Positions 3,520 through 60,348 of a DNA stretch of 61,600 nucleotides are shown in pieces. The notes beneath the pieces are model-generated. The model searched no databases and had not been told where the DNA came from. It saw only the letters and a program-made list of their open reading frames with translations. The position numbers and the translations under genes were made by a program. The stretch lies in the sequence record NC_048193.1, one strand, 5' to 3'. Within the stretch, counting starts at the first letter, position 1. Each line of letters begins with the position of its first letter. Source of the DNA: Escherichia phage PTXU04.

Positions 3520-3560
3520 TACCATAGGGGCTTCGGCCCCTTATTCACGGAGTACATGAC

Positions 3561-5009
3561 ATGGAATTAACAGTTGCGGGTGGCTACTTCATTCCCGGCA
3601 AGACGCCGCAAATTATCAATAAGGTTAATGAGTTAATCGCTCTCGGCTACGTTCCCTACGGTACCCCGACGTATAACGAGGCCAGCGGTTGGGTAAGTCA
3701 GCTAATGGTGCTGGGCTACGGCGGCAGCGCTACTGACTACACTCTCACGACTGGTTATCTCGATAAGACTCCCTACTTCCCTAAGAAGCCGCCAGTTAAC
3801 GGTAATTGGGTGTTGCTCGGCTCACTACTGGCGCGCTCCAATAATTTCTACGTGCACGCATGGCTTGACGGCGTAGCCGCTGGCCCACTCATCAATATCG
3901 ACACGGGCACCACTGGCACGCTACCAATCAGCCGGGGCGGTACCGGGGCAACTACGGAACTGGACGCACGCAACAATCTGGAGTTAGGCGCAGAGGATGA
4001 CGTGACGTTTAACAGCGTTACCAGTCGCAAGCGCAACACCGGAACGTCAGCGTTCATCGCTCAGGGCGTTGATGGCTACACTCCAGCATCCAGCTTTACA
4101 ACGCAGATGTACGACACCGCAGGTACCACGTTGCTCGGTCAGGGCGAGTTCCGCGCCAACAATAACGGTACGCTGCAAATCATCAACCGCGATCCTGTAG
4201 GTTCAACGTCATACTTCTGGACCTTCGGACGCGACGGGACTACTGAGTTTCCGGGACAAACAATTATTCCCGCAACTCCGGGTAAACCTTGCATCCTCAG
4301 GTCGGGTGCTCCGGTTCTCCAGTTTGAGGAAACCGATACTGGCAAGGTTTACACGATGGTTGCCGATGGTAGCGGTCTGCGTATCAATGCTAACAACACA
4401 AGCGGTCCGATCGTATGGGGTTATAGCGGAACAACATCTCGTCTACAATTACCTGGTATCGAGGGTAACATTCAGATGTATAGCGGCACCACAACCAGCC
4501 TCGGTGTAATCACTACTGGCGGCGGTACCACAGCGGTGGGTACTCGCAACCAGTTTGAGGTGACCACTTCGGCGGGGTTCTATCTGGTGCGACGTAACAC
4601 TCAGAACACCACCGGACAATATATTATCAACTTCCCTACGAGTGCAGGAACCCTGGCCCTCGCAGGTACGTCAGGTATCAATTTCAAACATGACATTACT
4701 GACGCCGATTTACTGGAAGCTGTGAACCGCATCGACGCGCTACGCATGGTCAACTTTGTCTACAACGACGACGAGCAAAACCGCCAGCGCTTCGGGATTA
4801 TCGCGGAAGAGGCGGAAACTATAGCTCCGCAGTACATTAAACATCGTGAAGAAATGTATGAATGCGACATTGACGAGAACGGATCATCCATCAACCAGAA
4901 GTTCCGCGACCGTCCGTTTGTTGACGTTAACCCCATCGTCATGGATTTACTGGGCTACGTTAAGCACTTGTCGGCACGCGTGGCTGAACTGGAAGAGAAA
5001 TTAAAGTGA
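3561..5009 (+). CDS. tail fiber/spike protein with C-terminal intramolecular chaperone (peptidase S74-like) domain
   Basis: 482 aa; Gly/Thr-rich beta region; C-terminus (FGIIAEEAETIAPQYI ... LLGYVKHLSARVAELEEKLK) resembles the self-cleaving chaperone domain of phage fibers/endosialidases. GGAG RBS 9 nt upstream. Confidence 0.6.
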   Translation: MELTVAGGYFIPGKTPQIINKVNELIALGYVPYGTPTYNEASGWVSQLMVLGYGGSATDYTLTTGYLDKTPYFPKKPPVNGNWVLLGSLLARSNNFYVHAWLDGVAAGPLINIDTGTTGTLPISRGGTGATTELDARNNLELGAEDDVTFNSVTSRKRNTGTSAFIAQGVDGYTPASSFTTQMYDTAGTTLLGQGEFRANNNGTLQIINRDPVGSTSYFWTFGRDGTTEFPGQTIIPATPGKPCILRSGAPVLQFEETDTGKVYTMVADGSGLRINANNTSGPIVWGYSGTTSRLQLPGIEGNIQMYSGTTTSLGVITTGGGTTAVGTRNQFEVTTSAGFYLVRRNTQNTTGQYIINFPTSAGTLALAGTSGINFKHDITDADLLEAVNRIDALRMVNFVYNDDEQNRQRFGIIAEEAETIAPQYIKHREEMYECDIDENGSSINQKFRDRPFVDVNPIVMDLLGYVKHLSARVAELEEKLK

Positions 5010-5041
5010 TGTTATCATGCACTGATTAACGGAGGTGTACT

Positions 5042-5230
5042 ATGGCAGGACGTCAAGTTTCATACACTACCCGCAGCTTCACTGAAATCGTGAATCGCCT
5101 GGACCCGAAGCGACTGTCTACCCCGGAAGCGGTATACGTGTTCGACAACGGAAAGGTGAAGAGCGAGCAGCCGACGCTACCGGGTCACGACTATCGTTGG
5201 ACTAAGGACATTGAGAATGACAACAGTTAA
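5042..5230 (+). CDS. hypothetical protein
   Basis: 62-aa ORF with strong GGAGGTG RBS. Confidence 0.45.
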   Translation: MAGRQVSYTTRSFTEIVNRLDPKRLSTPEAVYVFDNGKVKSEQPTLPGHDYRWTKDIENDNS

Positions 5231-5585
5231 CCATGCAGTGATTTACACGCGCGGTACAGGTAGTGACGCTATCGAGATTGCAAACTACGAACTGGCCTCC
5301 ATCATCGGCGAGTGTCTGCACAACGCATACCCCGGCTACCTGTGGCGTGTAAACGCTGAGATTGAAGGTGGTATCGTTAACATCCTGTGTGGCGACGTGT
5401 CCTACGAGTCCGGCGCTACGTTGATGATCGCTGACCTGGAAGAACCTGTCGCGGCCAAGCGTCACGTACTGAAGGCTGGTGGTGAAATTCTGGAACGCGC
5501 CAGACTGCACCGTGGACGTATGCGCGAGCATGAACTGGTGGAAGCCAAGCGCGACATTCGTGGTAACATCATTGGTTTAAACTGA
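5211..5585 (+). CDS. hypothetical protein
   Basis: 124-aa ORF overlapping the previous stop; AAGGA RBS. Confidence 0.45.
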   Translation: MRMTTVNHAVIYTRGTGSDAIEIANYELASIIGECLHNAYPGYLWRVNAEIEGGIVNILCGDVSYESGATLMIADLEEPVAAKRHVLKAGGEILERARLHRGRMREHELVEAKRDIRGNIIGLN

Positions 5586-5595
5586 GGATTAAGAG

Positions 5596-7977
5596 ATGCC
5601 GAACGCACAAAAGGGGATTAGTGAGTCCCTCGTTGGTCGCGCGCCGGACACCCAGTCGCCTTACGGCGGCGGTGGTGCTCGCGGGATTACGCAGGTAAAC
5701 GACGATCCGTACCGCGCTAACCAGATTATTCCGGGCGCTGAACTGGACATCAACCAGGCATCCTTCGGTGAGATGGACTCATTCTCCCAGTTCGAGAAGG
5801 AAGGCGATACGCTGCAAGCCGAGGAACAGACCTACGACCAACCGGACGACTCCGGCGTTGCTGGCATGTCTGAAACTGAGTGGGTAGACCTCGGTCGCCG
5901 TTGCTATGACACGGGCCGCACCTTCTACCGTCAGGGCTACCAGACGCAGCACATCAACGACACCTATCTGTTTAAAGGTCGCCACGAACCGGGCAGCAAG
6001 TATTACAGCGAAGCGTTCCGCAACCGCTCGAAAGTTTTCCGCCCGTTAACCCGCATGGCCTCCCGTAGCTGGGAAGCGGACATTGCAACCGCTCTGTTCC
6101 TGAACGATGACTACATGCACATCTCGCCACGCAACGTAACCGATCAGGATGCGGATAAAGCGGCGGCAGTGCTGAAGGAAATTGTAAACCTTCGTCTGGA
6201 TAAAATCTGGTACCCGATTTGTATCGGTGCGGCGCAGGACTCATTCATCAATGGGCCAGCAATCGCTAAGGTTTTCTGGTGGCGTGAAACTACCGTTACC
6301 AAAACTGACATTCCGGTGCTGGATGAGATGGGTAATCTGGTCGGTCTGGAAACTACCGAGAACGAAATCGTCGTTCACGATGAGCCGTACATCGACCTGA
6401 TCCTGCCGGAAAACTTTATCTTTGACCCGACCGCAAAAGCGAACGATGTCATCGGTACTGGCAAGTATTTCATCCACAGAAAAATGATGTCTGTTGATGA
6501 CGTCATGGTACGGATGGAACGCGGCGAGTGGAACATGCTGTCACCTGGCGAAATCCTGACGTGTCGCTGGGCGATGGAAGACGACGCCACGCAGCAGGCA
6601 AAACGCGGTGAAGGTAAGCCGGACCCAATCAACAACGACAACGCTGATACCCGTTACGAATCCGTGATGGTTAACGAAGTGTTCGTCCGCCGTGACGGTA
6701 TCTGGTACACCTACCACATGATGGGTACCCAGTTCTTACTGGAAATGCCTGTGGAACTGAAGAACCGCTATCACCACGGTCGCCTGCCGTTCGTTTACGG
6801 TACCTGCATGATTGAGTCTCACAACAACGTGCCGGACTCAAAAGCCCACCTGGGTAGCGAGTTGCAGAAGGCAGTGAACGAAATCAGTAACCAGCGCGTG
6901 GACAACGTTAAGCTCGTACTGAACAAGCGTTATCTGGCGCGTCGCGGTGCATCTATCGACCTGGCCGCTCTGACACGCTCCACTCCGGGCGGCGTAATTT
7001 TCACCAGCGACCCGGCTGGCGACCTGATCCCGCAGGAAGTGAACGACGTCACCAGTAGCAGCTATGAGGAAACTCAGCGCCTGACTATGGAGATGAACGA
7101 AGCGCAGGGTACCTTCAGCGGCCAGGCTGTAGCCAACAACCGCGAGATGAACGAAACCGTCGGTGGTATGAAGTTGCTGAGCAACGCCGCTACCAAAGTG
7201 AACGACTTCGACATCCGTACCTTCGTTTTCACCTTCGTGCGCCCGGTGCTGGAACTGTTCATGCTCACCGTTCAGTATTATGAGAACGACGAGACGATCA
7301 TGCACATCGCCGTCGACAACTCGGCCTACTTCCCGCGCCTCAACGTGGAAGACCTGACCGACGATCTCATGACTAAACAGCTTGAGATGAAAGTCGATAC
7401 AGGTATTGGTGCAACTGATCCGGTACAGCGCGTAAACACCTTGATGTACGGTGTGACGACGGTAATGCAGTTACCCGGCATGGCTGACAACATGGATAGT
7501 AAAGCCGTCGGCAGCGCTATCTTCTCAACGCTCGGTCAGGGTGACGGTAGTAAATTCTTCCCGAATCTGGCGAAGAACTTCCAGGAGCCGCCTCCGTCAG
7601 AACCACCAGTTGATCCGCTGGTACAGGCTGCACAGGAAGAAGCGAAAGGTCGAGTGCAGGAAGCGCAGATTAAAGCTGAACTGGAACTCCAGAAGCAAGC
7701 CAACCAACTGGCCGCCGACCGCGAACTGAAGTTGATTCAGATGGCGCTCGACGCAGAACTGGAAGGTAAGCGCGGTCAGCTTGATATGTTGCTGTCTATG
7801 CTGGATAATGAAACCCGGCTACGGATTGCCGAAGCACAGGACAAGACCAAGCGTCAGACCACCGCACTCCAGCACGGAAGCTCATTGCAGCAGACGGCGA
7901 TGCAGCAGGCCCAGCAAATCGGCCAGCAGGTAACGCCTACTCAGCAGGAAGTTATCAATGAGTCAAACGTCAAGTAA
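5596..7977 (+). CDS. portal protein
   Basis: 793-aa protein between terminase and scaffold/capsid genes; size, position and coiled-coil C-terminus fit a podovirus-type portal. Positional call. Confidence 0.65.
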   Translation: MPNAQKGISESLVGRAPDTQSPYGGGGARGITQVNDDPYRANQIIPGAELDINQASFGEMDSFSQFEKEGDTLQAEEQTYDQPDDSGVAGMSETEWVDLGRRCYDTGRTFYRQGYQTQHINDTYLFKGRHEPGSKYYSEAFRNRSKVFRPLTRMASRSWEADIATALFLNDDYMHISPRNVTDQDADKAAAVLKEIVNLRLDKIWYPICIGAAQDSFINGPAIAKVFWWRETTVTKTDIPVLDEMGNLVGLETTENEIVVHDEPYIDLILPENFIFDPTAKANDVIGTGKYFIHRKMMSVDDVMVRMERGEWNMLSPGEILTCRWAMEDDATQQAKRGEGKPDPINNDNADTRYESVMVNEVFVRRDGIWYTYHMMGTQFLLEMPVELKNRYHHGRLPFVYGTCMIESHNNVPDSKAHLGSELQKAVNEISNQRVDNVKLVLNKRYLARRGASIDLAALTRSTPGGVIFTSDPAGDLIPQEVNDVTSSSYEETQRLTMEMNEAQGTFSGQAVANNREMNETVGGMKLLSNAATKVNDFDIRTFVFTFVRPVLELFMLTVQYYENDETIMHIAVDNSAYFPRLNVEDLTDDLMTKQLEMKVDTGIGATDPVQRVNTLMYGVTTVMQLPGMADNMDSKAVGSAIFSTLGQGDGSKFFPNLAKNFQEPPPSEPPVDPLVQAAQEEAKGRVQEAQIKAELELQKQANQLAADRELKLIQMALDAELEGKRGQLDMLLSMLDNETRLRIAEAQDKTKRQTTALQHGSSLQQTAMQQAQQIGQQVTPTQQEVINESNVK

Positions 7978-8356
7978 ATCACCTACGAGCGCGCATGTAG
8001 TATATGCGCGCAACATTAATCACATTGATATGCGGCAAGATGATTTGATGTCGGATACCTTGCCCGTCAATTATCTTTACAGTAAGATAAACATCGGTGA
8101 GGATGCCGCTCACTTTTTTACCGAAACGTTGCTGGGCGCGGATTTCGATGTGCGCCTTCGCGAGCAGTTCACCGCAGGCTTTGAGAAGTTGCTCACGGCT
8201 AACCCGGCGAACACTAGCGAAATTGTAGAGGCACAGATTGCCTGCCTGACCGTCATCAAAATTTACGAAACGATTGGCGCTCAGATTGAAGAAAAGGAAA
8301 GCAGCAAGCAGCAGTTAAACCAACAGCAGTTAGATGAAGACGGAGAAACAGCATGA
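7958..8356 (+). CDS. hypothetical protein
   Basis: 132-aa acidic ORF between portal and scaffold; translationally coupled on both sides. Confidence 0.45.
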   Translation: MSQTSSKSPTSAHVVYARNINHIDMRQDDLMSDTLPVNYLYSKINIGEDAAHFFTETLLGADFDVRLREQFTAGFEKLLTANPANTSEIVEAQIACLTVIKIYETIGAQIEEKESSKQQLNQQQLDEDGETA

Positions 8357-9633
8357 CTATCCAACAGGACGCCATGACCCGTAAAGCAACCGAAGTATCA
8401 AAGCAACAGGTCATTGAAGAGAACAACGCAGCAGCCGTGGCCGCTGGATTCACCCAGCAGGAAATCGAAGGTGCCAGCGATCATCTGGATGCCGTCGAGC
8501 AGACCGCCGAGGCCAAGAAAAGTATCTCTGACCGGGTGCGCGAAAACCAAGCCGCTCAGGCAAAAGATTCCGAAGACTTCCTCGCCAGCATCGCCGAACG
8601 TCGCCGCCAGCATTTAGCTGAAGGTGCAGATGAAGGTTTCGACCTTTACGGTCTTGACAACGATGAAGAAAGTCAGGACAATCAGGTACAGGAAGAAGAA
8701 ACTGAGGTAGAGCAGGACGCTCAGGTGCAGCAGGAAGCCGCGCCGCAAGTGGATAACAATGCCCCTCGCTTCTTCACCGACGCCAACGGTAACCAGAAAG
8801 TTGAACTTCTGGTAAATGGCAAAGTTCAAGTAGTCGATGCTTCACGCGTTATCGCGGCAGCCCAAAAGCTGGAAGCAGGTGACGAGCGGTTGCGCCAGGC
8901 CGCAGAAGAACGCCAGCGTTTAGAACGCGAACGTGCTGAACTTGAACAATTACGACTGGCCTCGCAACAGACTCAACAGCCATCCAGTACGGACGCTGAC
9001 CCTGATCTGAAAGCGAAATTGCGACAAGGTTTTGAACGCCTTTATAACGAAGGCGACGATAGCGCACTGGACGAGCTAGTAGATACCCTGGCAAAAGGAC
9101 GCCAACAGGCCATCCCACAGGTTGATACCACTCAGGTTGTTCAGCAAGTAATCGTAGAGCAAAACCGTAAAGCATGGGATCACTCCCTGCAAGTTGACGC
9201 ACAGACTTACGAGTCTGATCCGCAATATGCAGATGTGGTCGGTAACCCGGCACTCAGTGCTAAAGCAGCGCAGTATGCTCAGCAACTGGTACGTGAAAGT
9301 AATGCTCGCGATAACAACATCCGTCCTCTGGACATCATGGTGCGCGCGGCAAACATGGCACGTAACGAAGCTCGTGAACTGGCAGCAGCTTTAGGTTATA
9401 CTGGTCAACAGGTTACCACAACGCAGCAGGTTAACTCGCGCGCAGCAGCAGTTGAAGCTCGTAAGAGTCAGGTAGGTCAAACCGTGCTGGGTAGCGGTGC
9501 GCAACGTGAAAGCGAAGCGCCGAAAAAAGCAGCAGTACCGGATGGTGGCCGCAGCCCGTCTTCAATGGACGCTAAGTTGGCAGCCTTCTCAGGTCTGACG
9601 CAGGGCAGAACCGCCCCAGCAATTAAACGTTAA
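8353..9633 (+). CDS. scaffolding protein (putative)
   Basis: 426 aa, highly acidic and coiled-coil rich (EE/QQ/RQR runs), directly upstream of the capsid gene. Confidence 0.55.
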   Translation: MTIQQDAMTRKATEVSKQQVIEENNAAAVAAGFTQQEIEGASDHLDAVEQTAEAKKSISDRVRENQAAQAKDSEDFLASIAERRRQHLAEGADEGFDLYGLDNDEESQDNQVQEEETEVEQDAQVQQEAAPQVDNNAPRFFTDANGNQKVELLVNGKVQVVDASRVIAAAQKLEAGDERLRQAAEERQRLERERAELEQLRLASQQTQQPSSTDADPDLKAKLRQGFERLYNEGDDSALDELVDTLAKGRQQAIPQVDTTQVVQQVIVEQNRKAWDHSLQVDAQTYESDPQYADVVGNPALSAKAAQYAQQLVRESNARDNNIRPLDIMVRAANMARNEARELAAALGYTGQQVTTTQQVNSRAAAVEARKSQVGQTVLGSGAQRESEAPKKAAVPDGGRSPSSMDAKLAAFSGLTQGRTAPAIKR

Positions 9634-9655
9634 TCGTTGAAAGGAGAGTAACACT

Positions 9656-10627
9656 ATGGCAGGTCAATTGTGGGGCGTTGAGCGTCTCGGCGGGTTCATG
9701 TACTCAGACCAACTGAGTCAGTATCTGCGTAAAGAAGTACAGCCGATGATGCGTTTCCGCCAGTTCTGCTCGGCGAAAGAAGCATTTACCTACGGTCGCG
9801 GTGATATTTTCCATTGGGACATCTTCACCAACGTACGTACCCAGGGCGGTCGTCTGAAAGAAGGTCAGGCTCTGCCAGAAACCAACTTCGAAATCCGCCA
9901 GGGTTCCTTGCAGATCGACGAGTTCGGTAACTCTGTACCGTACACCAAAAAACTGGACAACTTGTCCAAAGTTCCGGTTGAGAACATTATCCAGTCCGCT
10001 CTGAAAGACGACTGTGCTAAGACCCTCGACTACGAAGCGTACAGCCAGTTCAACCAGACTCGTCTGGTAGCTTCCCCGGTTAGCGGCACCTCCGCTACTC
10101 AGGTGAACATCGAAGCCGTGGCCGCCGCTGGTGACCATACTGCGACTGTGAACGACGCTGCACTGTCTCTGGACCACGTTAAAGCTATCATCGACGAGAT
10201 GAAAGAGCGTAACATTCCGGGCTACGACGGTGATGACTACTTCGCTCTGGCGCGTCCGACGACTTTCCGTCCGATTCGTAACGAGATCGAAGAACTGTCT
10301 AAGTACGTTGAAAGCGGCTGGCGTAACATTCGCCTGGGCGAAATCGGCAAATACGAAGGTTGCCGCTTTGTTGAGCAGACTAACATCCCGTCTAAGGGCT
10401 GGACCAATGGTAAGTCTGACGAAGCGTTCTTCTTCGGTGGCGATACCGTAACTGAAGCAGTTACCGATCCTGAACAGATTCGTGGTAAACTGCCTACCGA
10501 CTACGGTCGTTCCAAAGGTGTTGCGTGGTACTACATGGGTGGCTTCGGTATCGTTCACAACCAGTCTCAGGCTGACGATCCGCAGGCACTTCAGAACCGC
10601 ATCATCCGTTGGGACTCAGCGTCCTAA
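9656..10627 (+). CDS. major capsid protein (putative)
   Basis: 323 aa; strong AAAGGAGAG RBS; follows scaffold; followed at 10636-10651 by a GGGGGC-TTCG-GCCCCC hairpin, typical of highly expressed capsid genes. Confidence 0.6.
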   Translation: MAGQLWGVERLGGFMYSDQLSQYLRKEVQPMMRFRQFCSAKEAFTYGRGDIFHWDIFTNVRTQGGRLKEGQALPETNFEIRQGSLQIDEFGNSVPYTKKLDNLSKVPVENIIQSALKDDCAKTLDYEAYSQFNQTRLVASPVSGTSATQVNIEAVAAAGDHTATVNDAALSLDHVKAIIDEMKERNIPGYDGDDYFALARPTTFRPIRNEIEELSKYVESGWRNIRLGEIGKYEGCRFVEQTNIPSKGWTNGKSDEAFFFGGDTVTEAVTDPEQIRGKLPTDYGRSKGVAWYYMGGFGIVHNQSQADDPQALQNRIIRWDSAS

Positions 10628-10670
10628 GTTTAATCGGGGGCTTCGGCCCCCAAATTGAAGGAGAAGTAAC

Positions 10671-10871: not shown

Positions 10872-10885
10872 TGGAGGCTCGCTAA

Positions 10886-11956: not shown

Positions 11957-11959
11957 GAT

Positions 11960-53278: not shown

Positions 53279-53279
53279 G

Positions 53280-53507
53280 TTATTTCCCCCACCATTTCTT
53301 TTTATCGTTAAGCCAGGCTTGCGCCGCTTCCAGGCTGTCTAAGTTACCAGACCATTTGCCGTTATATTGTGCGTAATAAATACCGCGCAGCTTGTGAATC
53401 TCGTTACCGTTACGATCACGATAGTAGGCGGTGTCCATGTCAGCGATGAAGTAAAACAGTTTGAAGCCGCCCGGTGTTAACGCTAAAGCCTGCTCGATGG
53501 TCATCAT
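53280..53507 (-). CDS. hypothetical protein
   Basis: 75-aa ORF. Confidence 0.4.
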   Translation of the reverse strand: MMTIEQALALTPGGFKLFYFIADMDTAYYRDRNGNEIHKLRGIYYAQYNGKWSGNLDSLEAAQAWLNDKKKWWGK

Positions 53508-53698
53508 GATATTAATTCACCTATCGTTACGTTGAGCGCCGCAGCTAACTCGGTTAGAGTTTTCAGGCGCGGGTTGTTTGCTTTCAGTACCATGAACAGA
53601 GCGCCACGTTTCCAGCCTGCGCGCCGTTCCACCTCACTAAGACTTATGGCCTCCCGCTCGGCCAGGTATTGCACACGGGCTTTTAAATTAATCGCCAT
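53504..53698 (-). CDS. HTH (XRE/Cro-like) DNA-binding protein
   Basis: ORF-track frame 53504-53758; ATG 53698 chosen because the longer form would translate through the hairpin at 53704-53718. LSEVERRAGWKRGALFMVLKANNPRLKTLTELAAALNVTIGELI is HTH-like. No clear SD. Confidence 0.4.
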   Translation of the reverse strand: MAINLKARVQYLAEREAISLSEVERRAGWKRGALFMVLKANNPRLKTLTELAAALNVTIGELIS

Positions 53699-53703
53699 AG
53701 TTT

Positions 53704-53718
53704 GGGGGCCGAAGCCCC
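53704..53718 (-). terminator. GGGGC-UUCG-GCCCC tetraloop hairpin (- strand transcript)
   Basis: Same hairpin sequence as the + strand copies at 3527-3540 and 10636-10651; lies between the lipoprotein gene stop and the HTH gene start. Confidence 0.4.
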
Positions 53719-53726
53719 ACCCTTTA

Positions 53727-53912
53727 TTACTTTTCGCCACCCTTAGCCGCAGCATCACGGGAAGCCTGAGCGTTCTCGGCGCGTTGCTGCGCGTTAGGTG
53801 AATCCGACTCAGCGCGCCCGGTTTGACCGGATACGTTTGGATTGTACCCGACGTTGGCAGAGCAACCAGCCAGCAGAGTAGCCAGAACGATAGCGATGAT
53901 AGATTTAGACAT
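53727..53912 (-). CDS. small lipoprotein (signal peptide with lipobox LLAGC)
   Basis: ORF-track frame 53727-54050 trimmed to ATG 53912 (AGGAG RBS 8 nt upstream); MSKSIIAIVLATLLAGCSANVG is a canonical lipoprotein signal; 61 aa. Confidence 0.5.
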   Translation of the reverse strand: MSKSIIAIVLATLLAGCSANVGYNPNVSGQTGRAESDSPNAQQRAENAQASRDAAAKGGEK

Positions 53913-54090
53913 GTTTGAAGCTCCTATTGTTTGTGATGGAAAGGAGGCCGCCACCACGTCGACCATAAAATTTGTTAACGCCAGAGTTCTACCGGAAGAC
54001 CGAACACGAACCGGAGAACCGCCCACACTGCAACCATTGACATCACCCACAACGCCAGGGAGAAGGCAAGACCTGTGATTATGCTTTGCA

Positions 54091-54225
54091 TTACAACCGC
54101 CTTAATTGTGTGATAATGTCGTTAAAGGTGGCGTAGTCGCACGTCATAACCCACAGCGCTGACAGTATGAAAATGGCGATTGACAGTTTAAGTGCCGCGC
54201 TTGCGAATACATTAAAACCAGCCAT
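54091..54225 (-). CDS. small hydrophobic protein (tentative, below ORF-track cutoff)
   Basis: Hand-translated 44-aa ORF MAGFNVFASAALKLSIAIFILSALWVMTCDYATFNDIITQLRRL with one predicted TM helix; start overlaps the end of 54212-54571. Confidence 0.25.
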   Translation of the reverse strand: MAGFNVFASAALKLSIAIFILSALWVMTCDYATFNDIITQLRRL

Positions 54226-54571
54226 AGATCCCCCCGCAGTGTTTCATTGCGTCGTACAGGTTAGAAAATGCCATACCTTGTGTAAGGCCGTTCATGGTGT
54301 ACCATTTACCGTTACGCTCGTCCAGCTTGATAGCCCGGTTTAACGCATTGTGATAAAGGGCGTTCCCACCGTACACGCGGACCATGTAAACTTCCCCGTT
54401 GCGTGCGGTCACTGACACGGTGATCAGATGACCTTCCTCGGTACCCACCAGGGTAGCACCGTCACAAAAGTAAATGTTATCGCCCTGGTGCTCGCTGCGC
54501 TCCAGCGGAAAGTCTGTAATGTGCGCGACGGCGGCAATAATTCTCGGTAAGTTACTCACAGGAAACCCCAC
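54212..54571 (-). CDS. hypothetical protein
   Basis: 119-aa ORF. Confidence 0.45.
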   Translation of the reverse strand: MGFPVSNLPRIIAAVAHITDFPLERSEHQGDNIYFCDGATLVGTEEGHLITVSVTARNGEVYMVRVYGGNALYHNALNRAIKLDERNGKWYTMNGLTQGMAFSNLYDAMKHCGGIYGWF

Positions 54572-54721
54572 ATTTCACAAATATATTTCACGGTTGCCGA
54601 TATTGCGATCAGCGTCATGCAAGCACTTAACACAGCCACAAAATGATCTTTCACAGGAACCCCCACAACGTTAACGACAGATAACCCAGCGTTACATAGA
54701 AACCGATTGTTAATGTAGTGC

Positions 54722-55000
54722 TCACTGGCTGGCCTCCTTCACCATCCGGGCAGCCTCGCGCATTATCTTAGCGCGGTTGGCTACCGTGGACTTGATGCCG
54801 TGCTGAGCTAACAGGCGGCGCGTCGTGGTAAACTGGTGCGGCGGGAAGATAGCCGCAAAAAAGTTATCGTCGTAACGCTCCAGTCGGTCGAGGTCCACCA
54901 GGTCAGCTACTGCGTGACGCATAGCCTTTGATACAAAGATTGACCAGTCGGTACCCTCCGGTGCTTTGCGTGCTAAGGTATTCATGACACCATCTCCCAT
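54722..55000 (-). CDS. hypothetical protein
   Basis: 92-aa ORF. Confidence 0.45.
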   Translation of the reverse strand: MGDGVMNTLARKAPEGTDWSIFVSKAMRHAVADLVDLDRLERYDDNFFAAIFPPHQFTTTRRLLAQHGIKSTVANRAKIMREAARMVKEASQ

Positions 55001-55242
55001 GCGTGATGAACAATCTTACCCATTGCCTCATCAAAGCTATTACATTGCACACTATCGAGATTGCGGAACCGTACTAGGTTATCGCGGTAAGCAACAGCCA
55101 TCAGGTGAGCGCCATAATACAATTCAATCTCAATAGAGTGACCTTTGTTAGCCTTTATCACCCAGCCGAGCGGCAACACGTTAGCGCGCCCGGTGTTTTC
55201 TGCATAGGCCAGCGCTTCGGCTGGCGTTGGGTATTTGTTCAT
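54982..55242 (-). CDS. hypothetical protein
   Basis: 86-aa ORF. Confidence 0.45.
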   Translation of the reverse strand: MNKYPTPAEALAYAENTGRANVLPLGWVIKANKGHSIEIELYYGAHLMAVAYRDNLVRFRNLDSVQCNSFDEAMGKIVHHAWEMVS

Positions 55243-55244
55243 GA

Positions 55245-55559
55245 TCAGAATCTCACGTTCAGAATAACGATTACCGGTTTATTCCCCAGGCTGTAGGAGT
55301 CACCGAACAACAGCGCGCCCATGAAGTCACCGCGTGACAGGTTGGAGGCGCTCACGGTGCACACCTGGCCGTTATGCAGCACGGTATCACCTGGCTTGAT
55401 GGCGCTAATGTGCTTGCCGAATAACTGCGCGTCTTTGTAAACGCGGATGTTATATTCAGGCGCTACCGTCTTTTTCAGAGAAGCGATCACCGCCTCGCTA
55501 TCCAGCATGTTGATGTTTTCTGCCGCCATCAGTGCCGCAATATTTTCCAATGCTTTCAT
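55245..55559 (-). CDS. hypothetical protein
   Basis: 104-aa ORF; leader on the - strand is TTAACAGGAGATAAACAA-ATG with a hairpin (55577-55606) just upstream. Confidence 0.45.
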   Translation of the reverse strand: MKALENIAALMAAENINMLDSEAVIASLKKTVAPEYNIRVYKDAQLFGKHISAIKPGDTVLHNGQVCTVSASNLSRGDFMGALLFGDSYSLGNKPVIVILNVRF

Positions 55560-55625
55560 TTGTTTATCTCCTGTTAAGGGGTGTTAGTGGTTTTAATAAG
55601 GCACCCCGCAAGATGCCTGATAAAA

Positions 55626-55865
55626 CTACTGGATGATATAGGCGAATCCGGTACCGTCTGGAGTTTCACCGCTGGCAATGATTTTCCACTCAATATCAGT
55701 GCGCGCTTTCAGGTCTGCAATCAGAGCGTTGGCCGCTTCGGTGTGCGCTTCTTTAATCTCAGAGCAAGGGTAAGCGATAGTTACTTTACCGTTCCAGCAT
55801 TTAGCAACGATGCGAGCGCCACGGGAATTAGTAGGAGCCAGGAATTTAGTGATGATAGTTTGCAT
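55626..55865 (-). CDS. hypothetical protein
   Basis: 79-aa ORF; conserved leader AAAGAGAGAGAAACAAA-ATG; predicted promoter at 55918-55946. Confidence 0.45.
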   Translation of the reverse strand: MQTIITKFLAPTNSRGARIVAKCWNGKVTIAYPCSEIKEAHTEAANALIADLKARTDIEWKIIASGETPDGTGFAYIIQ

Positions 55866-55917
55866 TTTGTTTCTCTCTCTTTTTGAGGTGGGAAGCGGTA
55901 TTGCCTCCCAGTGATTT

Positions 55918-55946
55918 AAAGATACTACTAATCAGATTTAGCGTCA
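55918..55946 (-). promoter_or_regulatory. putative sigma70-like early promoter (weaker -10)
   Basis: On the - strand: -35 TTGACG (55946-55941), 17-nt spacer, -10 TATTTT (55923-55918). Confidence 0.3.
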
Positions 55947-55971
55947 AGTAATTATTTCACGAATTTTTAAA

Positions 55972-56298
55972 TTACTTTAGCGCCGCCACCAGCTTGATAT
56001 AGTCGATGGCATCCTCAAGCGTCCTGACATGTACCGGGGGACGGTCCCGCAGATGCACAATCACGTAGTTGGTGTACAGAATGCAGCGCGCGAACTCGTC
56101 GCCGTCAGGGTAACGCACAGACACAACCGGACCCACTTCCGATACTATGTAACCCTCGATGGCTGGCAGGCGCGCAGGGCGTACTACGGGCTTTAACTGG
56201 TCTATCGCATCCTGAAGCCAGGCGGTGACCTCTGCGGCTGACTTGCCGTTTTCCAGGGCGTGCAGGGCGTTGATAATATTAGCGCGTGCATTATTCAT
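55972..56298 (-). CDS. hypothetical protein
   Basis: 108-aa ORF. Confidence 0.45.
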   Translation of the reverse strand: MNNARANIINALHALENGKSAAEVTAWLQDAIDQLKPVVRPARLPAIEGYIVSEVGPVVSVRYPDGDEFARCILYTNYVIVHLRDRPPVHVRTLEDAIDYIKLVAALK

Positions 56299-56708
56299 TT
56301 GTTCAGACCTCCGTTAACAATAAAATTGAATGCGTCGTTAAAGTTATTAAAGCGGTGGCGCGGTACTGTACCAGCATCGCACACCACATATTTAAAACCG
56401 ACCTTAACGATCTGGCCTACCCGCTTGTCGTCATGTACACGGGCAACGCGCCAGGTATGCACGCCTACCTGCTCCGACTTATAGCGGATTTTGAATTTAA
56501 GGTACGCCGCCAGCACCTTGTCGGCCCACTTCTGGCGCTCCTCTTTTGGAACAAACGACGAGCAGCGATCCGCCAGCTTGAAGGTATTAACGGTTAACCC
56601 CCAGTCGTTATGACAAGAAAGGTACACCGAGAACGGCGTGAATTGCAGGCGCACGTTGCGATACTTAAAACTCTGTTTTACTGCATGGTTAACGGTTACT
56701 TTACGCAT
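56295..56708 (-). CDS. hypothetical protein
   Basis: 137-aa ORF; shares an FKLAD motif with the next gene upstream. Confidence 0.45.
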   Translation of the reverse strand: MRKVTVNHAVKQSFKYRNVRLQFTPFSVYLSCHNDWGLTVNTFKLADRCSSFVPKEERQKWADKVLAAYLKFKIRYKSEQVGVHTWRVARVHDDKRVGQIVKVGFKYVVCDAGTVPRHRFNNFNDAFNFIVNGGLNK

Positions 56709-57105
56709 AATTAGTGCCTTTGATTGAGCAGGTTAGAAAAAGATCCATAACGTCATTCGTCCACTGTTCCCGGTCGCCTTCCTGATCGGCCAGTTTGAAC
56801 ATCTCCACATTGGGCGCTATCAGGTAGACCCCGGTTGTCGTGAATGACAGGCGCACGCTTGAGTAATTGAGGCATTCATTGACAGCGTGGCGCATGTCAT
56901 CGGCGCACGTTCTGGTACTCCACATAAATTTTAAAGTGCTATCAGGACGGTGGACACGCACAGCCATCTCACCGTCTGCCGTCTGCACAATACCGTAATG
57001 CCTTCCGGTTGACTGGTAGCGCACCCTTGCCGCTTTGATAGCCGCCGGGATAGACGTATATCGCCGATAACCTGGCGCGCCCTTAAGCTGGTTGGGATGC
57101 GGCAT
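56701..57105 (-). CDS. hypothetical protein
   Basis: 134-aa ORF. Confidence 0.45.
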   Translation of the reverse strand: MPHPNQLKGAPGYRRYTSIPAAIKAARVRYQSTGRHYGIVQTADGEMAVRVHRPDSTLKFMWSTRTCADDMRHAVNECLNYSSVRLSFTTTGVYLIAPNVEMFKLADQEGDREQWTNDVMDLFLTCSIKGTNYA

Positions 57106-57421
57106 CGGCTGATCCCCAGGCGCGATCTATCAGTCCTTGCAGCGCTCCCAGTTGTGTAGCGTGGTACCCTGCATCGCCCGGATCGCGGTCAACGTAGGCC
57201 CAGGCGTGGCCCTCAGTAGTCCGGCGCACCTTGCCGAACGCTACGTTGCTGGCATCAATGAGGGTATAGGTTACGGTATGTTTACCCTCGCGCACCATGC
57301 GCCAGCCTTTAGGAATGTGTAACTGTTGCCCGTAATACTCAAAGATTGAATAGTTGCCGTCGTCGTCAATCTGTGCGAGCAGGTCTACCAGGGCGGCGCG
57401 GATCTCTGCAATAGTTTTCAT
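57083..57421 (-). CDS. hypothetical protein (PKGW motif)
   Basis: 112-aa ORF; shares MKT start and a PKGW segment with the adjacent 119-aa ORF. Confidence 0.45.
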   Translation of the reverse strand: MKTIAEIRAALVDLLAQIDDDGNYSIFEYYGQQLHIPKGWRMVREGKHTVTYTLIDASNVAFGKVRRTTEGHAWAYVDRDPGDAGYHATQLGALQGLIDRAWGSADAASQPA

Positions 57422-57777
57422 TTGTTGGCCTCACGGTTAAGCCATTCGATGGCCTCTTTTTGAGTTTTCACAGTGGTTTTATATTTACCGTCCCACCAGA
57501 TCACATGATTGCCTTCAATATTCCGGTATACATAGGCACGTCTGACTCCGCGCTGGTCGCTCAGAATAATGATGTTGTTGCTGTCGTGGTTGATGGCGAT
57601 ACCCCAGCCTTTAGGCAGGTTTACCGGTACGCCCAGGAAATGCGGTTGTTCCTCCTTTGGTTGCAGGCTGGCAATCAGCACGTCTAAAGCCTCGATTAAC
57701 TCATAAGCCGGGGCCGTCTTCGGGATAATGCAGGCATAATCATCCCGCAGGTTCTGGTAGTAGCTTAAAGTTTTCAT
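57418..57777 (-). CDS. hypothetical protein (PKGW motif)
   Basis: 119-aa ORF. Confidence 0.45.
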   Translation of the reverse strand: MKTLSYYQNLRDDYACIIPKTAPAYELIEALDVLIASLQPKEEQPHFLGVPVNLPKGWGIAINHDSNNIIILSDQRGVRRAYVYRNIEGNHVIWWDGKYKTTVKTQKEAIEWLNREANK

Positions 57778-58028
57778 TTGGTTAATCCCTCGATTGCCTC
57801 ACGGGCGTGGCGCTTTGCGTCGCCGTAAGCGTTGGGCGAATACTGCGACGTTTCATGACCAGCAAACCACGCGTTAACTAATAGCTCTTTGATTAGCTCA
57901 CTGTTGAGCAGGTCAAACGCGCCGTTAGTGTAAGGATGCGTGTAAGGATTGGCCTTGTTGCGCTGCGTCGGGTCGCTATCCTTATCAGTCATGTGGGCGT
58001 TGTTGATCCACTTCTCGAACTCTGTCAT
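57774..58028 (-). CDS. hypothetical protein
   Basis: 84-aa ORF; its ATG overlaps the TGA of the small ORF 58025-58201 (ATGA). Confidence 0.45.
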   Translation of the reverse strand: MTEFEKWINNAHMTDKDSDPTQRNKANPYTHPYTNGAFDLLNSELIKELLVNAWFAGHETSQYSPNAYGDAKRHAREAIEGLTK

Positions 58029-58201
58029 TTGAATTTACCCTCCAGTATTTTAGCGATGACCGCATCAATCCACATGTCACGCTGCGACGGCTCATAGGTG
58101 TGGCTGAGCACCTGGCCGATAGTAGCACCTGGGGCAAACGTGGTAATTAATATCACTGTATGCCCGATAAACTTTAATTTGATGTTACTGATTGTTTGCA
58201 T
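58025..58201 (-). CDS. small ORF, possible degenerate fourth copy of the tandem paralog family (tentative)
   Basis: Hand-translated 58-aa ORF (MQTISNIKLKFIGHTVILITTFAPGATIGQVLSHTYEPSQRDMWIDAVIAKILEGKFK) starting at the same conserved ATG (inside the KDHA codons) that starts each paralog; ends in ATGA overlap with the next gene. Confidence 0.3.
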   Translation of the reverse strand: MQTISNIKLKFIGHTVILITTFAPGATIGQVLSHTYEPSQRDMWIDAVIAKILEGKFK

Positions 58202-58475
58202 GGTCTTTTACCCACTTGATGCGCTCATGGTTAAGGTGCATGGTCGCGCCGTCAAACTCTATTTCGAATCGGTATTCACCGCCGAACGGGTAGATCGGAT
58301 CGAGTCCAGCCTCTTCCAGTTGCTTCTTAATATGCCAGCGCGGCAGGCAATACGGCGCTTGCGTGACTGACATACATAATCCAACGTGACGATAGAACGG
58401 CTGGCCTTCCGGCGCGCCTTTATCCAGCCAGGCGGCATAGTCGTTATAGAATTGCTGTAATAATTTATTTTGCAT
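58185..58475 (-). CDS. tandem paralog C (about 95-aa family, unknown function)
   Basis: MQNKLLQQFYNDYAAWLDKGAP ... AGLDPIYPFGG ... RIKWVKDHA; similar along its length to the two genes upstream. Confidence 0.55.
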   Translation of the reverse strand: MQNKLLQQFYNDYAAWLDKGAPEGQPFYRHVGLCMSVTQAPYCLPRWHIKKQLEEAGLDPIYPFGGEYRFEIEFDGATMHLNHERIKWVKDHANNQ

Positions 58476-58752
58476 GGTCTTTCACCCATTGAACGCGTAA
58501 AGGGTTGAGGTGCATAGCCCGATTCTCTAAATCTATATCGAACTGAGGCACGCCGCCGAACGGGTATAATGAATCGAGTCCGGCCTCCGCAAACTGTTTT
58601 TTAATTTCGTTAAGAGGTACGCGGTACGGTCGTTTCATTGCTTGCGAGCATAAACCCTCGCCGCGCGTAAATTGCTTATCGTCTTCCGGCGCGCCAGCAT
58701 CAAGCCAGGCCGCGTAGTCGTTATAGAATTGCTGTAAGTTTTTATTGTGCAT
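58465..58752 (-). CDS. tandem paralog B (about 95-aa family, unknown function)
   Basis: MHNKNLQQFYNDYAAWLDAGAP ... AGLDSLYPFGG ... RVQWVKDHAK; start ATG lies inside the WVKDHA codons of paralog A (11-nt overlap). Confidence 0.55.
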   Translation of the reverse strand: MHNKNLQQFYNDYAAWLDAGAPEDDKQFTRGEGLCSQAMKRPYRVPLNEIKKQFAEAGLDSLYPFGGVPQFDIDLENRAMHLNPLRVQWVKDHAK

Positions 58753-59029
58753 GGTCTTTTACCCACTTGATGCGTAAAGGGTTGATGTGATGGTCGCTAT
58801 TGAATGACTTAGTAAGATAATCCGCCTCACCGTCATTGAAAGGATACTGAAAATCAAGACCAGCCGCCTCGAACTGGCGACCCATCTCGATATAAGCGTC
58901 ACGGTCGCCGCCGAACTTCCCCAGGTTATGACATAACCCAGCGTCTCGATAAAACGGTTGTTTGTGTGGCGCGCCAGCGTCAAGCCACGCGGCGTATGCG
59001 TTATAGAATGCCTGTAATAATTTATTCAT
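58742..59029 (-). CDS. tandem paralog A (about 95-aa family, unknown function)
   Basis: MNKLLQAFYNAYAAWLDAGAP ... AGLDFQYPFNDG ... RIKWVKDHAQ. Confidence 0.55.
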   Translation of the reverse strand: MNKLLQAFYNAYAAWLDAGAPHKQPFYRDAGLCHNLGKFGGDRDAYIEMGRQFEAAGLDFQYPFNDGEADYLTKSFNSDHHINPLRIKWVKDHAQ

Positions 59030-59164
59030 TTCAATAAGTCCTCGATTGCTAAGTGGATGCCTACCAGCCGCGCCCGGTCACGCTGGGCTTTAATGCGGCT
59101 CACTACAGTGGCGAGGGACTCCCCGCCGTACAGGGTGATTTTAAACAGGGTGGTCACCCGGCTG

Positions 59165-59461
59165 TTATATTTTGCGCAAAGCACGTAAGGCTTCATTGTA
59201 GTATTCCGTCATTTCAATTTTCATGTGGTGGCTTACGCAATCCTCGTTGGCCCATACTAGCCAGTCGCTCGGCAATGCGCAGGCAATGAACTCCTGCCAG
59301 TAGTCATAATCGCGCTGGCTGAGCGTACCCATTGCCGCTATTTTGTTGCGCACATCGAAACCAGCGTTAAAGATTTGCTGACAGATAGCGGCCAGGGTGG
59401 GGCGCAGTGCCAGTTTGCGGAAGTAGCGCGCGTCTTCAGCGTCGATAATTTGATTGGTCAT
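59165..59461 (-). CDS. hypothetical protein
   Basis: 98-aa ORF; leader TTAACAGGAGATGCAATC-ATG with hairpin 59484-59499 upstream. Confidence 0.45.
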   Translation of the reverse strand: MTNQIIDAEDARYFRKLALRPTLAAICQQIFNAGFDVRNKIAAMGTLSQRDYDYWQEFIACALPSDWLVWANEDCVSHHMKIEMTEYYNEALRALRKI

Positions 59462-59483
59462 GATTGCATCTCCTGTTAAGGGT

Positions 59484-59499
59484 GGGGCACGATGGCCCC
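59484..59499 (-). terminator. GC hairpin (GGGGC-loop-GCCCC) in hairpin/leader cassette
   Basis: Between the stop of 59509-60306 and the RBS of 59165-61; flanking CCTGTTAAGGGTGGGGC sequence recurs at 60322-60348 and 55569-55583. Confidence 0.4.
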
Positions 59500-59508
59500 G
59501 GTGGTTGA

Positions 59509-60306
59509 TTATAAGCCGTTAATGCGGTTGGCGTAGCTCACAGCGTTGTATTCGTCGTCGAACTCGTACAGGTGCTTACCGTCGAGCATTACGAAGTGAC
59601 GACCTTTGTCAGTGCTGTACACGGCGCGCCCGTTGGTGATAGTGGTGTAAGCGTTGATGTCTGCCTCTGTTACCTCCAGCGCGCCCATGTTGATGAGGTT
59701 GCGGATACCGATCTGAATGTCGACCCACTCGCGCGACTCGTTAACCCAGCGATAAACGAAACCTGACTTGCTCACCTTGTATACGGAGTCAGCCACGAAG
59801 TAGCGCGGTGTTTCTTTATTGATGAAGTCGGTCAGTTGCTGTTGCTTACGCTCAAACTCTTTGCGGTTAAACGCTACAGTCAGGTCCAGTTCTTCACCAG
59901 CATATAAATGCTGCGGCGCTTTCGCCAGGTCACACAGGTCATTGTGATTGGTGATGCGTGCGTCGTGACCGTCTACGATACGCTGCGCCATACCTGCCAG
60001 CAGGTTAGCGGTGCGCTCGCGGTCCATTTTAAACGCTTCATCATGAGCGGCGGCAATGGAGTTACCGGAAAACTCGCGGTTGTCCTTGCCGTCCCAGCCC
60101 ATGCGGGAATCGCGGGAATTAAGCTCAATGATGGCCGCCTCCAGGCGCTCAATCAGCTTAGCGCGACGTGTCGGGGTGGAGAAAGACAACCCGGTGTTAG
60201 CTTCGAAGTTAATGCGGTTCCACTCAGCACAGATAGCGCCGATAGTAGTTGTGTTGTCGCGAATCATACGTTCGGCAGTCTGGATCAGGAAAGTGATATT
60301 AGTCAT
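59509..60306 (-). CDS. hypothetical protein
   Basis: 265-aa ORF; conserved leader CAAAGAGCGAGAAACAAAA-ATG. Confidence 0.5.
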   Translation of the reverse strand: MTNITFLIQTAERMIRDNTTTIGAICAEWNRINFEANTGLSFSTPTRRAKLIERLEAAIIELNSRDSRMGWDGKDNREFSGNSIAAAHDEAFKMDRERTANLLAGMAQRIVDGHDARITNHNDLCDLAKAPQHLYAGEELDLTVAFNRKEFERKQQQLTDFINKETPRYFVADSVYKVSKSGFVYRWVNESREWVDIQIGIRNLINMGALEVTEADINAYTTITNGRAVYSTDKGRHFVMLDGKHLYEFDDEYNAVSYANRINGL

Positions 60307-60333
60307 TTTTGTTTCTCGCTCTTTGTTGAGGGT

Positions 60334-60348
60334 GGGGCCGATGGCCCC
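60334..60348 (-). terminator. GC hairpin (GGGGCC-loop-GGCCCC) in hairpin/leader cassette
   Basis: Between the stop of 60358-60540 and the leader of 59509-60306. Confidence 0.4.

Follow-up and report, generated by a model that had tools for sequence, protein, structure and literature searches.

Operon-internal GC-rich hairpins and hairpin-leader cassettes in the genome of Escherichia phage PTXU04

Gene order and intergenic hairpins of PTXU04

The complete genome of Escherichia phage PTXU04 (Xuquatrovirus; 61,600 bp; MK373772 / NC_048193), analyzed here over its whole length (the window), carried short GC-rich hairpins between genes inside its operons, mostly a few nucleotides past the stop codon of the upstream gene. 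As judged from sequence, these hairpins are real, under selection and active at the RNA level. The function favored here, with little better than even confidence, is that of operon-internal mRNA punctuation, the hairpins serving as 3' exonuclease barriers and perhaps also as weak attenuators. PTXU04 is the type phage of Xuquatrovirus, and a polyvalent protein of ~2,198 amino acids as well as a CsrA homologue have been described from it (PMC6563267; PMC11879866). The gene order displayed four strand blocks:

1-29.8 kb, plus strand: block 1, structural genes
29.9-39.3 kb, minus strand: block 2
39.4-44.9 kb, plus strand: block 3
45.1-61.4 kb, minus strand: block 4, early ORFans and six sigma-70-like promoters

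Nine hairpins were operon-internal:

2640-2658, plus strand: GGGGCGC-AUGGA-GUGCCCC, beginning 16 nt past a stop and ending 24 nt before the AUG at 2683
3527-3540, plus strand: GGGGC-UUCG-GCCCC, beginning 7 nt past the stop of gene 2683-3519
10636-10651, plus strand: GGGGGC-UUCG-GCCCCC, beginning 8 nt past the stop of the major capsid gene (9656-10627)
36230-36245, minus strand: GGCCCC-GCAA-GGGGCC (GNRA loop), beginning 9 nt past the stop of a single-stranded DNA-binding protein gene
47794-47811, minus strand: GGGCGC-AAUUCC-GCGCCC, beginning 8 nt past a stop codon and ending 19 nt before the phoH AUG (47774)
53705-53718, minus strand: GGGGC-UUCG-GCCCC, beginning 8 nt past the stop of a small lipoprotein gene (lipobox LLAGC)
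55599-55618, minus strand: AGGCAUC-UUGCGG-GGUGCCU, beginning 7 nt past the stop of the first gene behind promoter 55947
59484-59499, minus strand: GGGGC-CAUCGU-GCCCC, followed by leader ACCCUUAACAGGAGAU (59462-59483) and the AUG at 59461
60334-60348, minus strand: GGGGCC-AUC-GGCCCC, followed by leader ACCCUCAACAAAGAGCGAGAAACAAAA (60307-60333) and the AUG at 60306

Eight hairpins had been listed in the first-pass annotation; direct reading found seven of them where they had been placed, while the eighth, given as 55577-55606, had been mis-delimited, the minimum-energy hairpin at that site being 55599-55618 on the minus strand. An alternative pairing suggested by the fold (55578-55606, GGGGUG/CACCCC) was rejected, a 10-nt deletion in the related phages Pondi and Bas95 removing it. 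Folding of all intergenic regions added three hairpins that had been left out: 2640-2658 (plus strand), 55889-55910 and 32979-33002 (both minus strand). A second small hairpin near 2640-2658 (gccc-AGGGA-gggc) overlapped the Shine-Dalgarno (SD) sequence.

Among the plus-strand hairpins, the one at 3527-3540 ended 20 nt ahead of the tail-fiber gene 3561-5009 (tail UUAUUCAC), and the N-terminus encoded by the preceding gene (2683-3519) was weakly similar to a protein annotated as head fiber in Bas95. The post-capsid hairpin ended 19 nt ahead of the gp11 AUG (10671), with no U-tract after it (AAAUUGAA). On the minus strand, the hairpin at 36230-36245 (fold z = -3.2) ended 21 nt ahead of the next AUG and followed gene 36255-37331, encoding a Gp2.5/Enc34-like single-stranded DNA-binding protein. 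The hairpin at 55599-55618 was followed by the tail UAUUAAAA, the leader CACCCCUUAACAGGAGAU (55567-55584) and the AUG at 55559, so that gene 55626-55865 was bracketed by the hairpin 55889-55910 just after its promoter and by this one at its 3' end. The hairpin at 60334-60348 (z = -2.5) was a paralogue of that at 59484.

The hairpin at 53705-53718 ended just 6 nt ahead of the AUG of gene 53504-53698 (minus strand), which encodes a helix-turn-helix (Cro/XRE-like) protein of 64 amino acids and lacks annotation in Pondi. No SD was found between the hairpin and this AUG, the sole SD-like sequence (AAGGG) lying just upstream of the hairpin, which may bring it within range of the start codon. Such a layout, with the SD upstream of a hairpin, recalls T4 gene 38 and gene 25.

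Placement, geometry and strand polarity

GC-rich hairpins were not in excess in the genome, while their positions were strongly biased. Counted as at least 5 consecutive G-C pairs with a loop of 3-8 nt, 15 were found compared with 16.8 +/- 3.7 in dinucleotide shuffles, and an overall excess was rejected. Of these pure-GC hairpins, 9-10 of 15 fell in non-coding DNA (4.7% of the genome), where 0.7 were expected (binomial P ~4e-9). The non-random aspect is thus their placement only, not their number.

The bare hairpins on the transcribed strand had stems of 5-8 bp and energies of -8.7 to -13.3 kcal/mol, and whole intergenic regions folded at -10.9 to -23.4 kcal/mol, with modest single-site fold z-scores (-0.7 to -4.6). 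Their geometry was regular. The gap from stop codon to hairpin was 7-9 nt in eight of nine, and that from hairpin to next AUG was 19-27 nt in seven of nine. A C(UUCG)G or C(GCAA)G tetraloop closed four of the nine, the other five having loops of 3, 5 or 6 nt. These four tetraloops (UUCG at 3527, 10636 and 53705; GCAA at 36230) belonged to the UNCG/GNRA class on the transcribed strand only.

Conservation and covariation

Close-relative comparisons covered three genomes, PTXU04, Pondi (Xuquatrovirus; capsid region 97% identical) and HelliStehle_Bas95 (Bas95; ~88%). Stems were invariant across Pondi and Bas95 while loops or flanks varied. The hairpin at 10636 was identical in both, the one at 36230 kept the same stem between variable flanks, and the sole Bas95 change at 47794 fell in the loop; loop changes were also seen among close relatives at 59484, and a G-U pair at 55889 was changed to G-C in Pondi. 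The 26-nt hairpin-plus-leader at 3527 was 96% conserved in Bas95 though both flanking genes differed, and a 45-nt core at 55599 was kept there between unrelated flanking genes. The hairpin at 2640 was absent from Bas95, where a homing endonuclease gene occupies its position. An extra UNCG hairpin was noted at 22123-22138 of Bas95, between the tail-fiber and 'head morphogenesis' genes (CCGCCC-UACG-GGGCGG, then UUUU, SD and AUG); the counterpart site in PTXU04 holds a hairpin at 22656-22684.

Beyond the close relatives, the region after the capsid gene was surveyed in 15 viral and 18 metagenomic loci encoding capsid relatives. Wherever an intergenic gap existed, a G-C hairpin of differing sequence lay a few nucleotides past the capsid stop. 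The versions were distributed as follows against capsid identity:

90% identity: GGGGCG-CUAGU-CGCCCC
86% identity: GGGGGC-UUCG-GCCCCC
72% identity: GCGGGG-UUCG-CCCCGC
71% identity: GGGCGC-UUCG-GUGCCC
70% identity: GCGGGG-GUAACA-CCCCGC
54% identity: GGCCGG-GAAA-CCGGCC and GGCGGG-GUAA-CCCGCC
51% identity: GCCCCC-UACAU-GGGGGC

More remote relatives had longer hairpins, hairpin-bearing relatives spanned 46-90% capsid identity, and only two or three of their hairpins had a U-rich tail. Across the seven tetraloop versions, an alignment of preselected hairpins, 100% of the cells paired and five of the six pairs changed on both sides. The earlier proposal that these elements act as RNA therefore found support in the stable tetraloops confined to the sense strand and in the covarying post-capsid stem. 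In the replication operon, relatives with ~70% DNA polymerase identity likewise carried intergenic G-C tetraloop hairpins, with UCUG, GCAA and UUCG loops.

The exact 16-mer GGGGGCTTCGGCCCCC was present in more than 120 other viral contigs of IMG/VR. Of 128 occurrences, 73 followed an open reading frame (ORF) in the UUCG-sense orientation only and 2 in the antisense orientation only, and the stop-to-hairpin gap peaked at 5-8 nt in unrelated phages. Testing whether these loci fell inside an ORF was uninformative because of long spurious ORFs in G-C-rich DNA. From these comparisons, the element is a generic feature of phage operons that arises convergently.

Canonical terminators and read-through

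Canonical U-tract terminators were mainly found at the ends of operons or modules and at convergence points:

11315-11340, plus strand: intrinsic terminator GGGGUCGC-CUUGU-GCGGCCCC followed by UUUUU, end of the capsid module
29324-29354, plus strand: canonical terminator GCCCU...AGGGC followed by U8, after the gp25 gene (2197 amino acids)
29983-30003, both strands: bidirectional terminator AAAGGGGC-GUUAA-GCCCCUUU with T-runs on both strands, first convergence point, beside csrA
45116-45135, both strands: bidirectional terminator GGGCGC-UUAU-GCGCCC with T-runs on both strands, second convergence point

All four sites had a U-tract (at least 5 U in the 8 nt directly after the stem), which none of the nine operon-internal hairpins had. 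As first proposed, most of the hairpins lacked a U-tract: 1-4 U were counted in the first 8 tail nt of all nine, versus 7 for the terminator at 11315, and seven of the nine had only 1-2. Partly U-rich tails were restricted to 3527 (UUAUU) and 55599. A terminator scan of the transcribed strand called none of the operon-internal hairpins, and no promoter was found by scan between the hairpins and the next AUG. The proteins gp11 and gp12, encoded downstream of 10636, are virion proteins visible by sodium dodecyl sulfate polyacrylamide gel electrophoresis (PMC6563267). Since these genes and the tail-fiber gene behind 3527 must be expressed without a promoter of their own past the hairpins, read-through is required. 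The lack of U-tracts, the absence of scan calls and the need for read-through together bear out the view that the hairpins are not simple terminators, and a role as efficient terminators is unlikely.

The terminator at the second convergence point was identical in the three phages; in Bas95 (42599-42615) a T/A run of ~15 followed it, compared with 5 in PTXU04 and Pondi.

Leaders and promoter cassettes of the early region

The first-pass annotation placed a conserved leader after each of five hairpins. This held for 55599, 59484 and 60334, while the leaders after 36230 and 47794 were unrelated. One leader, CCCUUAACAGGAGAU, lay downstream of 55599 and 59484, and another, CCCACC(C)UCAA-AAGAG(A/C)GAGAAACAAAA-AUG, downstream of 60334 and of promoters 55947 and 60607. 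At 59484 and 60334, a shared hairpin module (hairpin B, GGGGCC-AUCG-GCCCC) was joined to ACCCU(U/C)AAC and to one of these two leaders. Five cassettes contained a sigma-70-like promoter:

55866-55971, minus strand: promoter-hairpin-leader cassette, sigma-70-like TTGACG-17-TATCTT
32979-33017, minus strand: promoter TTGACG-17-TACATT, its -10 hexamer being the loop of an overlapping hairpin
60541-60635, minus strand: promoter cassette TTGACG-17-TATAGT, inverted repeat GGC-AGGGAC-GCC in the spacer, leader CACCCAAUUAACGAAAGAGAGAAACAAA-AUG
51244-51312, minus strand: promoter cassette, paralogue of 60541-60635
48693-48760, minus strand: promoter cassette, paralogue of 60541-60635

The hairpin of the first cassette, UGGGAGGC-AAUACC-GCUUCCCA (55889-55910; z = -4.2), was followed by the leader CCUCAAAAAGAGAGAGAAACAAA-AUG; with a -10 box at its usual distance, the hairpin would be located at the transcript's 5' end or close to it. 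One copy of this cassette was present in PTXU04, one in Pondi and two in Bas95. The hairpin at 32979-33002 (CGGGG-UACAUUAG-CCCCG; z = -4.6) was retained in Bas95 with a -35 box TTGACA and a different spacer. Small inverted repeats were observed just after the -35 box at 48693-48760 (GUC-AGGGAC-GAC), 51244-51312 (GGC-AUGGAA-GCC) and 60541-60635 (GGC-AGGGAC-GCC), and might serve as an operator recognized by some regulator of the phage. Promoter regions 48756 and 47073 and the core of 51303 were identical in PTXU04, Pondi and Bas95, with ~85% identity in the surrounding coding DNA, and promoter cassette 60607 had no counterpart in Pondi or Bas95. A cassette swap was also detected, the Bas95 orthologue of gene 59165-59461 having a second promoter-hairpin-leader copy upstream instead of hairpin B. 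Exact searches of IMG/VR with the 3527 cassette and the CCCACCUCAA leader returned nothing outside the lineage.

These arrangements recall the promoter early stem-loops (PeSLs) of T4-type phages, in which a sigma-70 promoter is combined with a polyG/polyC stem-loop between or over its boxes, an SD and a start codon (PMC2839356), and which are clustered among ORFans and serve as recombination points (PMC2839356, PMC4122927). As in RB49 and phi1, the PTXU04 cassettes united promoter, stem-loop and SD/AUG within ~100 bp, with the stem-loop over the -10 box (32979-33017) or beside the promoter (55866-55971); they were repeated in the ORFan-rich early region and in a few cases appeared to stand at insertion or replacement junctions between close relatives. 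The stem-loop component itself took three forms, the hairpin over the -10 box (32979-33002), the small inverted repeats in three promoter spacers and the hairpin after the -10 box (55889-55910). The junction-type cases were 3527, 55599 and 59484, with 2-3 copies per family in the three genomes compared. In contrast to PeSLs, the hairpins at 3527, 10636, 36230, 47794, 53705, 59484 and 60334 had no promoter, families counted 2-3 copies rather than the dozens of RB49, and the stem-loop of the 55889 cassette lay downstream of the -10 box, within the 5' untranslated region. The early-region cassettes thus resemble T4-type PeSLs with partial membership, and a recombination role would be assigned to them by analogy.

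Other repeats were observed upstream of start codons. At 58152-58201 and 58703-58752 (minus strand), two start codons were preceded by near-identical stretches of 49 nt ending in CGCAUCAAGUGGGUAAAAGACC-AUG, which suggests that a junction at a gene end or start was duplicated (paralogous small early genes). An exact 12-mer, TGTGCTATGCTT, occurred twice on the plus strand (22650-22689 and 29354-29399), ~35-45 nt upstream of the gp25 AUG and of the AUG of gene 29400. Each copy was followed by a hairpin with the 3' arm GGAGCAU and by UUUC(A)UA-AUG, the second copy standing directly after the gp25 terminator. This 12-mer might act either as an operator in translation or as a late promoter (extended -10-like TGnTATGCT).

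Phage CsrA and GGA-loop hairpins

The csrA gene (29991-30191, minus strand; Pfam PF02599, E = 1.7e-12) was the last of its operon and adjoined the bidirectional terminator at 29983-30003. Its product retained RNA-binding residues (L-x-I-T-R-R and H-R-D motifs), and its knock-down shrinks plaque size (PMC11879866). No relatives of the phage CsrA were found in IMG/VR by the search method used. Intergenic hairpins with GGA in the loop numbered 9 on the sense strand, compared with 3.6 +/- 1.8 in shuffles, and 2 on the antisense strand, in a post hoc test including paralogous promoter cassettes and two possibly coding sites, which are not independent. The two-site pattern (a short hairpin with a GGA loop and, 10-60 nt away, another GGA that overlaps the SD) was seen in two leaders, at 2640/2664 and at 30418-30473 upstream of the csrA operon. 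A hairpin at 35873-35888 (minus strand; ACGCCA-CGGA-UGGCGU, then UUU), with a single GGA site, stood directly before the AUG of gene 35189-35869 and was identical in the three phages; the sole SD-like sequence (GGAUGG) lay in its loop and 3' arm and resembles the CsrA motif obtained by SELEX (systematic evolution of ligands by exponential enrichment).

Other genome-wide searches

Rfam covariance models gave no match at gathering score over the whole genome, and nothing at the hairpins when E up to 1 was accepted for positions 1-12000 and 45000-61600. A sub-threshold match to Ysr251 at 47084-47277 (plus strand; 62.7 bits versus a gathering score of 100; E = 2.5e-14) was antisense to the phoH gene and is probably due to homology of the phoH coding sequence, not to a small RNA. 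No tRNAs were found in the 61,600-bp genome, and no terminal direct repeat linked its first and last 4 kb.

Discussion

The stability element proposed at first remains the best-fitting reading of the PTXU04 hairpins. An almost pure G-C stem of 5-7 bp with a stable loop (UUCG, GCAA), 7-9 nt past the upstream stop, would sit immediately beyond the mRNA channel when a ribosome halts at that stop codon, and could remain folded while the upstream gene is translated. Judged by ribosome footprints, the first paired base would, at this 7-9 nt offset, fall at the edge of the stopped ribosome's mRNA channel. With the hairpin ending ~20 nt before the next AUG and no U-tract following, host RNA polymerase would mostly pass. 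After a cut downstream, or at the end of the transcript, the hairpin would block 3'-to-5' exonucleases (PNPase, RNase II), and the upstream cistron would outlast the downstream ones, raising its relative level. Weak pausing or attenuation probably also occurs at these sites, most of all at 3527 and 55599, whose tails are partly U-rich. Early-region stem-loops of this type are built into reusable cassettes of hairpin, leader and SD or of promoter, hairpin, leader and SD. The upstream genes encode the major capsid protein, the protein weakly similar to the Bas95 head fiber, the Gp2.5/Enc34-like protein and the first gene product behind two strong early promoters; as they include proteins needed in bulk, a raised level of the upstream cistron fits. 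The sequence shows that the hairpins exist, lie between genes, have a strand polarity, are conserved in position and covary, lack U-tracts and contrast with the canonical terminators; the exonuclease barrier and the amount of attenuation are what we infer.

Several observations weigh against mRNA punctuation of this kind. Fold z-scores were weak for several single hairpins, the covariation alignment was made of sequences preselected as hairpins and hence biased towards structure, and Vibrio-phage relatives had a 10-nt gap and no hairpin past the capsid gene, making it dispensable in some lineages. The exonuclease-barrier step would itself be borrowed from general E. coli and phage knowledge. 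Furthermore, the replication-operon hairpins of relatives at ~70% polymerase identity had clear U-tracts, and tails of the IMG/VR 16-mer were U-rich in ~42% (31 of the 73 sense-only copies) and U-poor in 36%, the latter mostly running straight into SD and AUG; with such U-tracts, the class grades into true, possibly leaky, terminators. The hairpins could accordingly be leaky intrinsic terminators or attenuators that halt some of the host polymerases, so that transcript abundance falls stepwise along the operon as with TJ, TF and TG of phiX174, an alternative that we regard as unlikely but that has several observations on its side. Stems and tetraloops resembled those of PTXU04's own terminators, two of the tails were partly U-rich, intergenic terminators of phiX174 block just 20-40% of transcription (bioRxiv 10.1101/2020.03.05.979765), and a PeSL stem-loop cut reporter expression about as much as the rrnB T1 terminator (PMC2839356). 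In Pseudomonas phages, only ~20% of mapped termination sites were canonical intrinsic terminators (PMC10204088), so that it would not be unusual for 3' ends to fall at hairpins lacking a U-tract. Most post-capsid hairpins of relatives nevertheless lacked U-tracts, and the scan called none of the operon-internal PTXU04 hairpins on the transcribed strand. Tails with the 1-2 U found in seven of the nine give little release by E. coli RNA polymerase. The true share of attenuation would look no different from stabilization in sequence alone. A recurrence arising mainly at the DNA level, with cassettes acting as short shared homologies for recombination and gene swapping and any RNA role being secondary, is possible, though we lean against it. 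It would account for the cassettes kept at 3527 and 55599 between non-homologous genes of Bas95, the swap at 59484, the differing copy number of the promoter-hairpin-leader (two in Bas95) and the promoter cassettes 100% identical in three phages amid coding DNA at ~85%, and it has a precedent in PeSLs (PMC2839356, PMC4122927). Selection on RNA is favored instead by the polarity of the loops and by the covarying stem, the shared cores were short (14-45 nt), the exact searches found no cassette outside the lineage in IMG/VR, and mosaic breakpoints fall at gene boundaries anyway, which makes their coincidence with cassettes weak evidence.

It is improbable that the hairpins are protein-binding RNA operators, bound for instance by the phage CsrA or serving as boxB-like antitermination sites. 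The encoded CsrA with its RNA-binding residues and knock-down effect (PMC11879866), the sense-strand enrichment of GGA loops and the two leaders with the two-site pattern speak for this, while none of the eight hairpins first listed had GGA in its loop and the enrichment came from the post hoc test with its paralogous cassettes and possibly coding sites. No boxA-like sequence stood beside any hairpin, and an N-like protein was not identified. Lambda-type nut sites were rejected, boxA-like matches being at chance level with none beside a hairpin on the transcribed strand. More speculatively, and with low probability, GGA-loop hairpins paired with GGA-containing SDs, as part of the hairpin repertoire, might form a phage CsrA regulon. 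Its members would be the regions upstream of gene 2683, of the csrA operon (30418-30473) and of gene 35189-35869, and read-through copies of three early promoter cassettes. RNase III processing sites as in T7 early mRNA, the analogy drawn at the outset, are hardly credible, nothing favoring them beyond the intercistronic position and the lack of a U-tract. For cleavage by E. coli RNase III, the helix between cleavage site and loop must span 11 bp, activity being lost with 1-2 bp removed and reactivity falling 50-fold with one pair removed, and G-C pairs in its proximal box are antideterminants that inhibit binding or catalysis (PMC1540722). The PTXU04 stems were of 5-8 bp and almost pure G-C, the longest uninterrupted helix among the nine being 8 bp (55599), and no extended helix of ~20 bp was conserved in any intergenic fold. 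A predicted 6-bp extension of the stem around 10636 was rejected, not being kept in Bas95. Compared with T7 R1.1-type sites, which are likewise intercistronic phage RNA hairpins without terminator function, the stems of 5-8 G-C pairs amount to antideterminants, whereas R1.1-type sites have at least 11 bp to the loop, natural ones being longer with an internal loop, and specific proximal and distal boxes.

The punctuation hairpins have several known counterparts. In 1988 (PNAS), Tuerk et al. reportedly described hairpins with C(UUCG)G or GNRA tetraloops between the cistrons of T4 mRNA; a T4 review contained nothing on such hairpins. Those of PTXU04 share the C(UUCG)G loop and closing pair, short G-C stems, intercistronic position and sense-strand polarity. 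They differ in belonging to another lineage, a Xuquatrovirus podovirus known here from sequence, and the regular stop offset of 7-9 nt was measured in PTXU04 and does not come from the T4 work. In bacterial operons, 3' stem-loop stabilizers include the repetitive extragenic palindromic (REP) sequences in malE-malF and the puf intercistronic hairpins. Both are stable operon-internal hairpins with inefficient termination that shield the upstream segment from 3' exonucleases, the mechanism proposed for PTXU04; REP sequences are however longer, host-specific repeats with their own consensus, whereas the PTXU04 hairpins are minimal (14-20 nt). The phiX174 terminators TJ, TF, TG and TH likewise stand after capsid or structural genes in one transcription unit, require read-through and grade mRNA levels, but are detected as Rho-independent by prediction tools, unlike the uncalled hairpins of PTXU04 with no U-tract.

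No principle of phage biology is changed by the PTXU04 hairpins. Should the CsrA regulon be true, a viral CsrA would let the phage time or autoregulate how its own messages are translated, GC hairpins and leaders being modules of one post-transcriptional program. The hairpins could also provide compact, portable read-through stabilizers for synthetic operons. CRISPRi-ART and BASEL-type studies already work with PTXU04, the type phage of a genus that is poorly understood, or with relatives of it. Mapping the transcript punctuation of PTXU04 supports gene-start calls, as for the 64-amino-acid helix-turn-helix gene after 53705 missing from the Pondi annotation, and informs guide design and the reading of polar effects. 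By analogy, the behavior of the cassettes would modestly extend the concept of PeSLs, as small regulatory cassettes at mosaic junctions, to a phage lineage outside the T4-type myoviruses, and the hairpins belong to a known and widespread kind, ordinary phage punctuation placed just past stop codons and probably tuning message survival.

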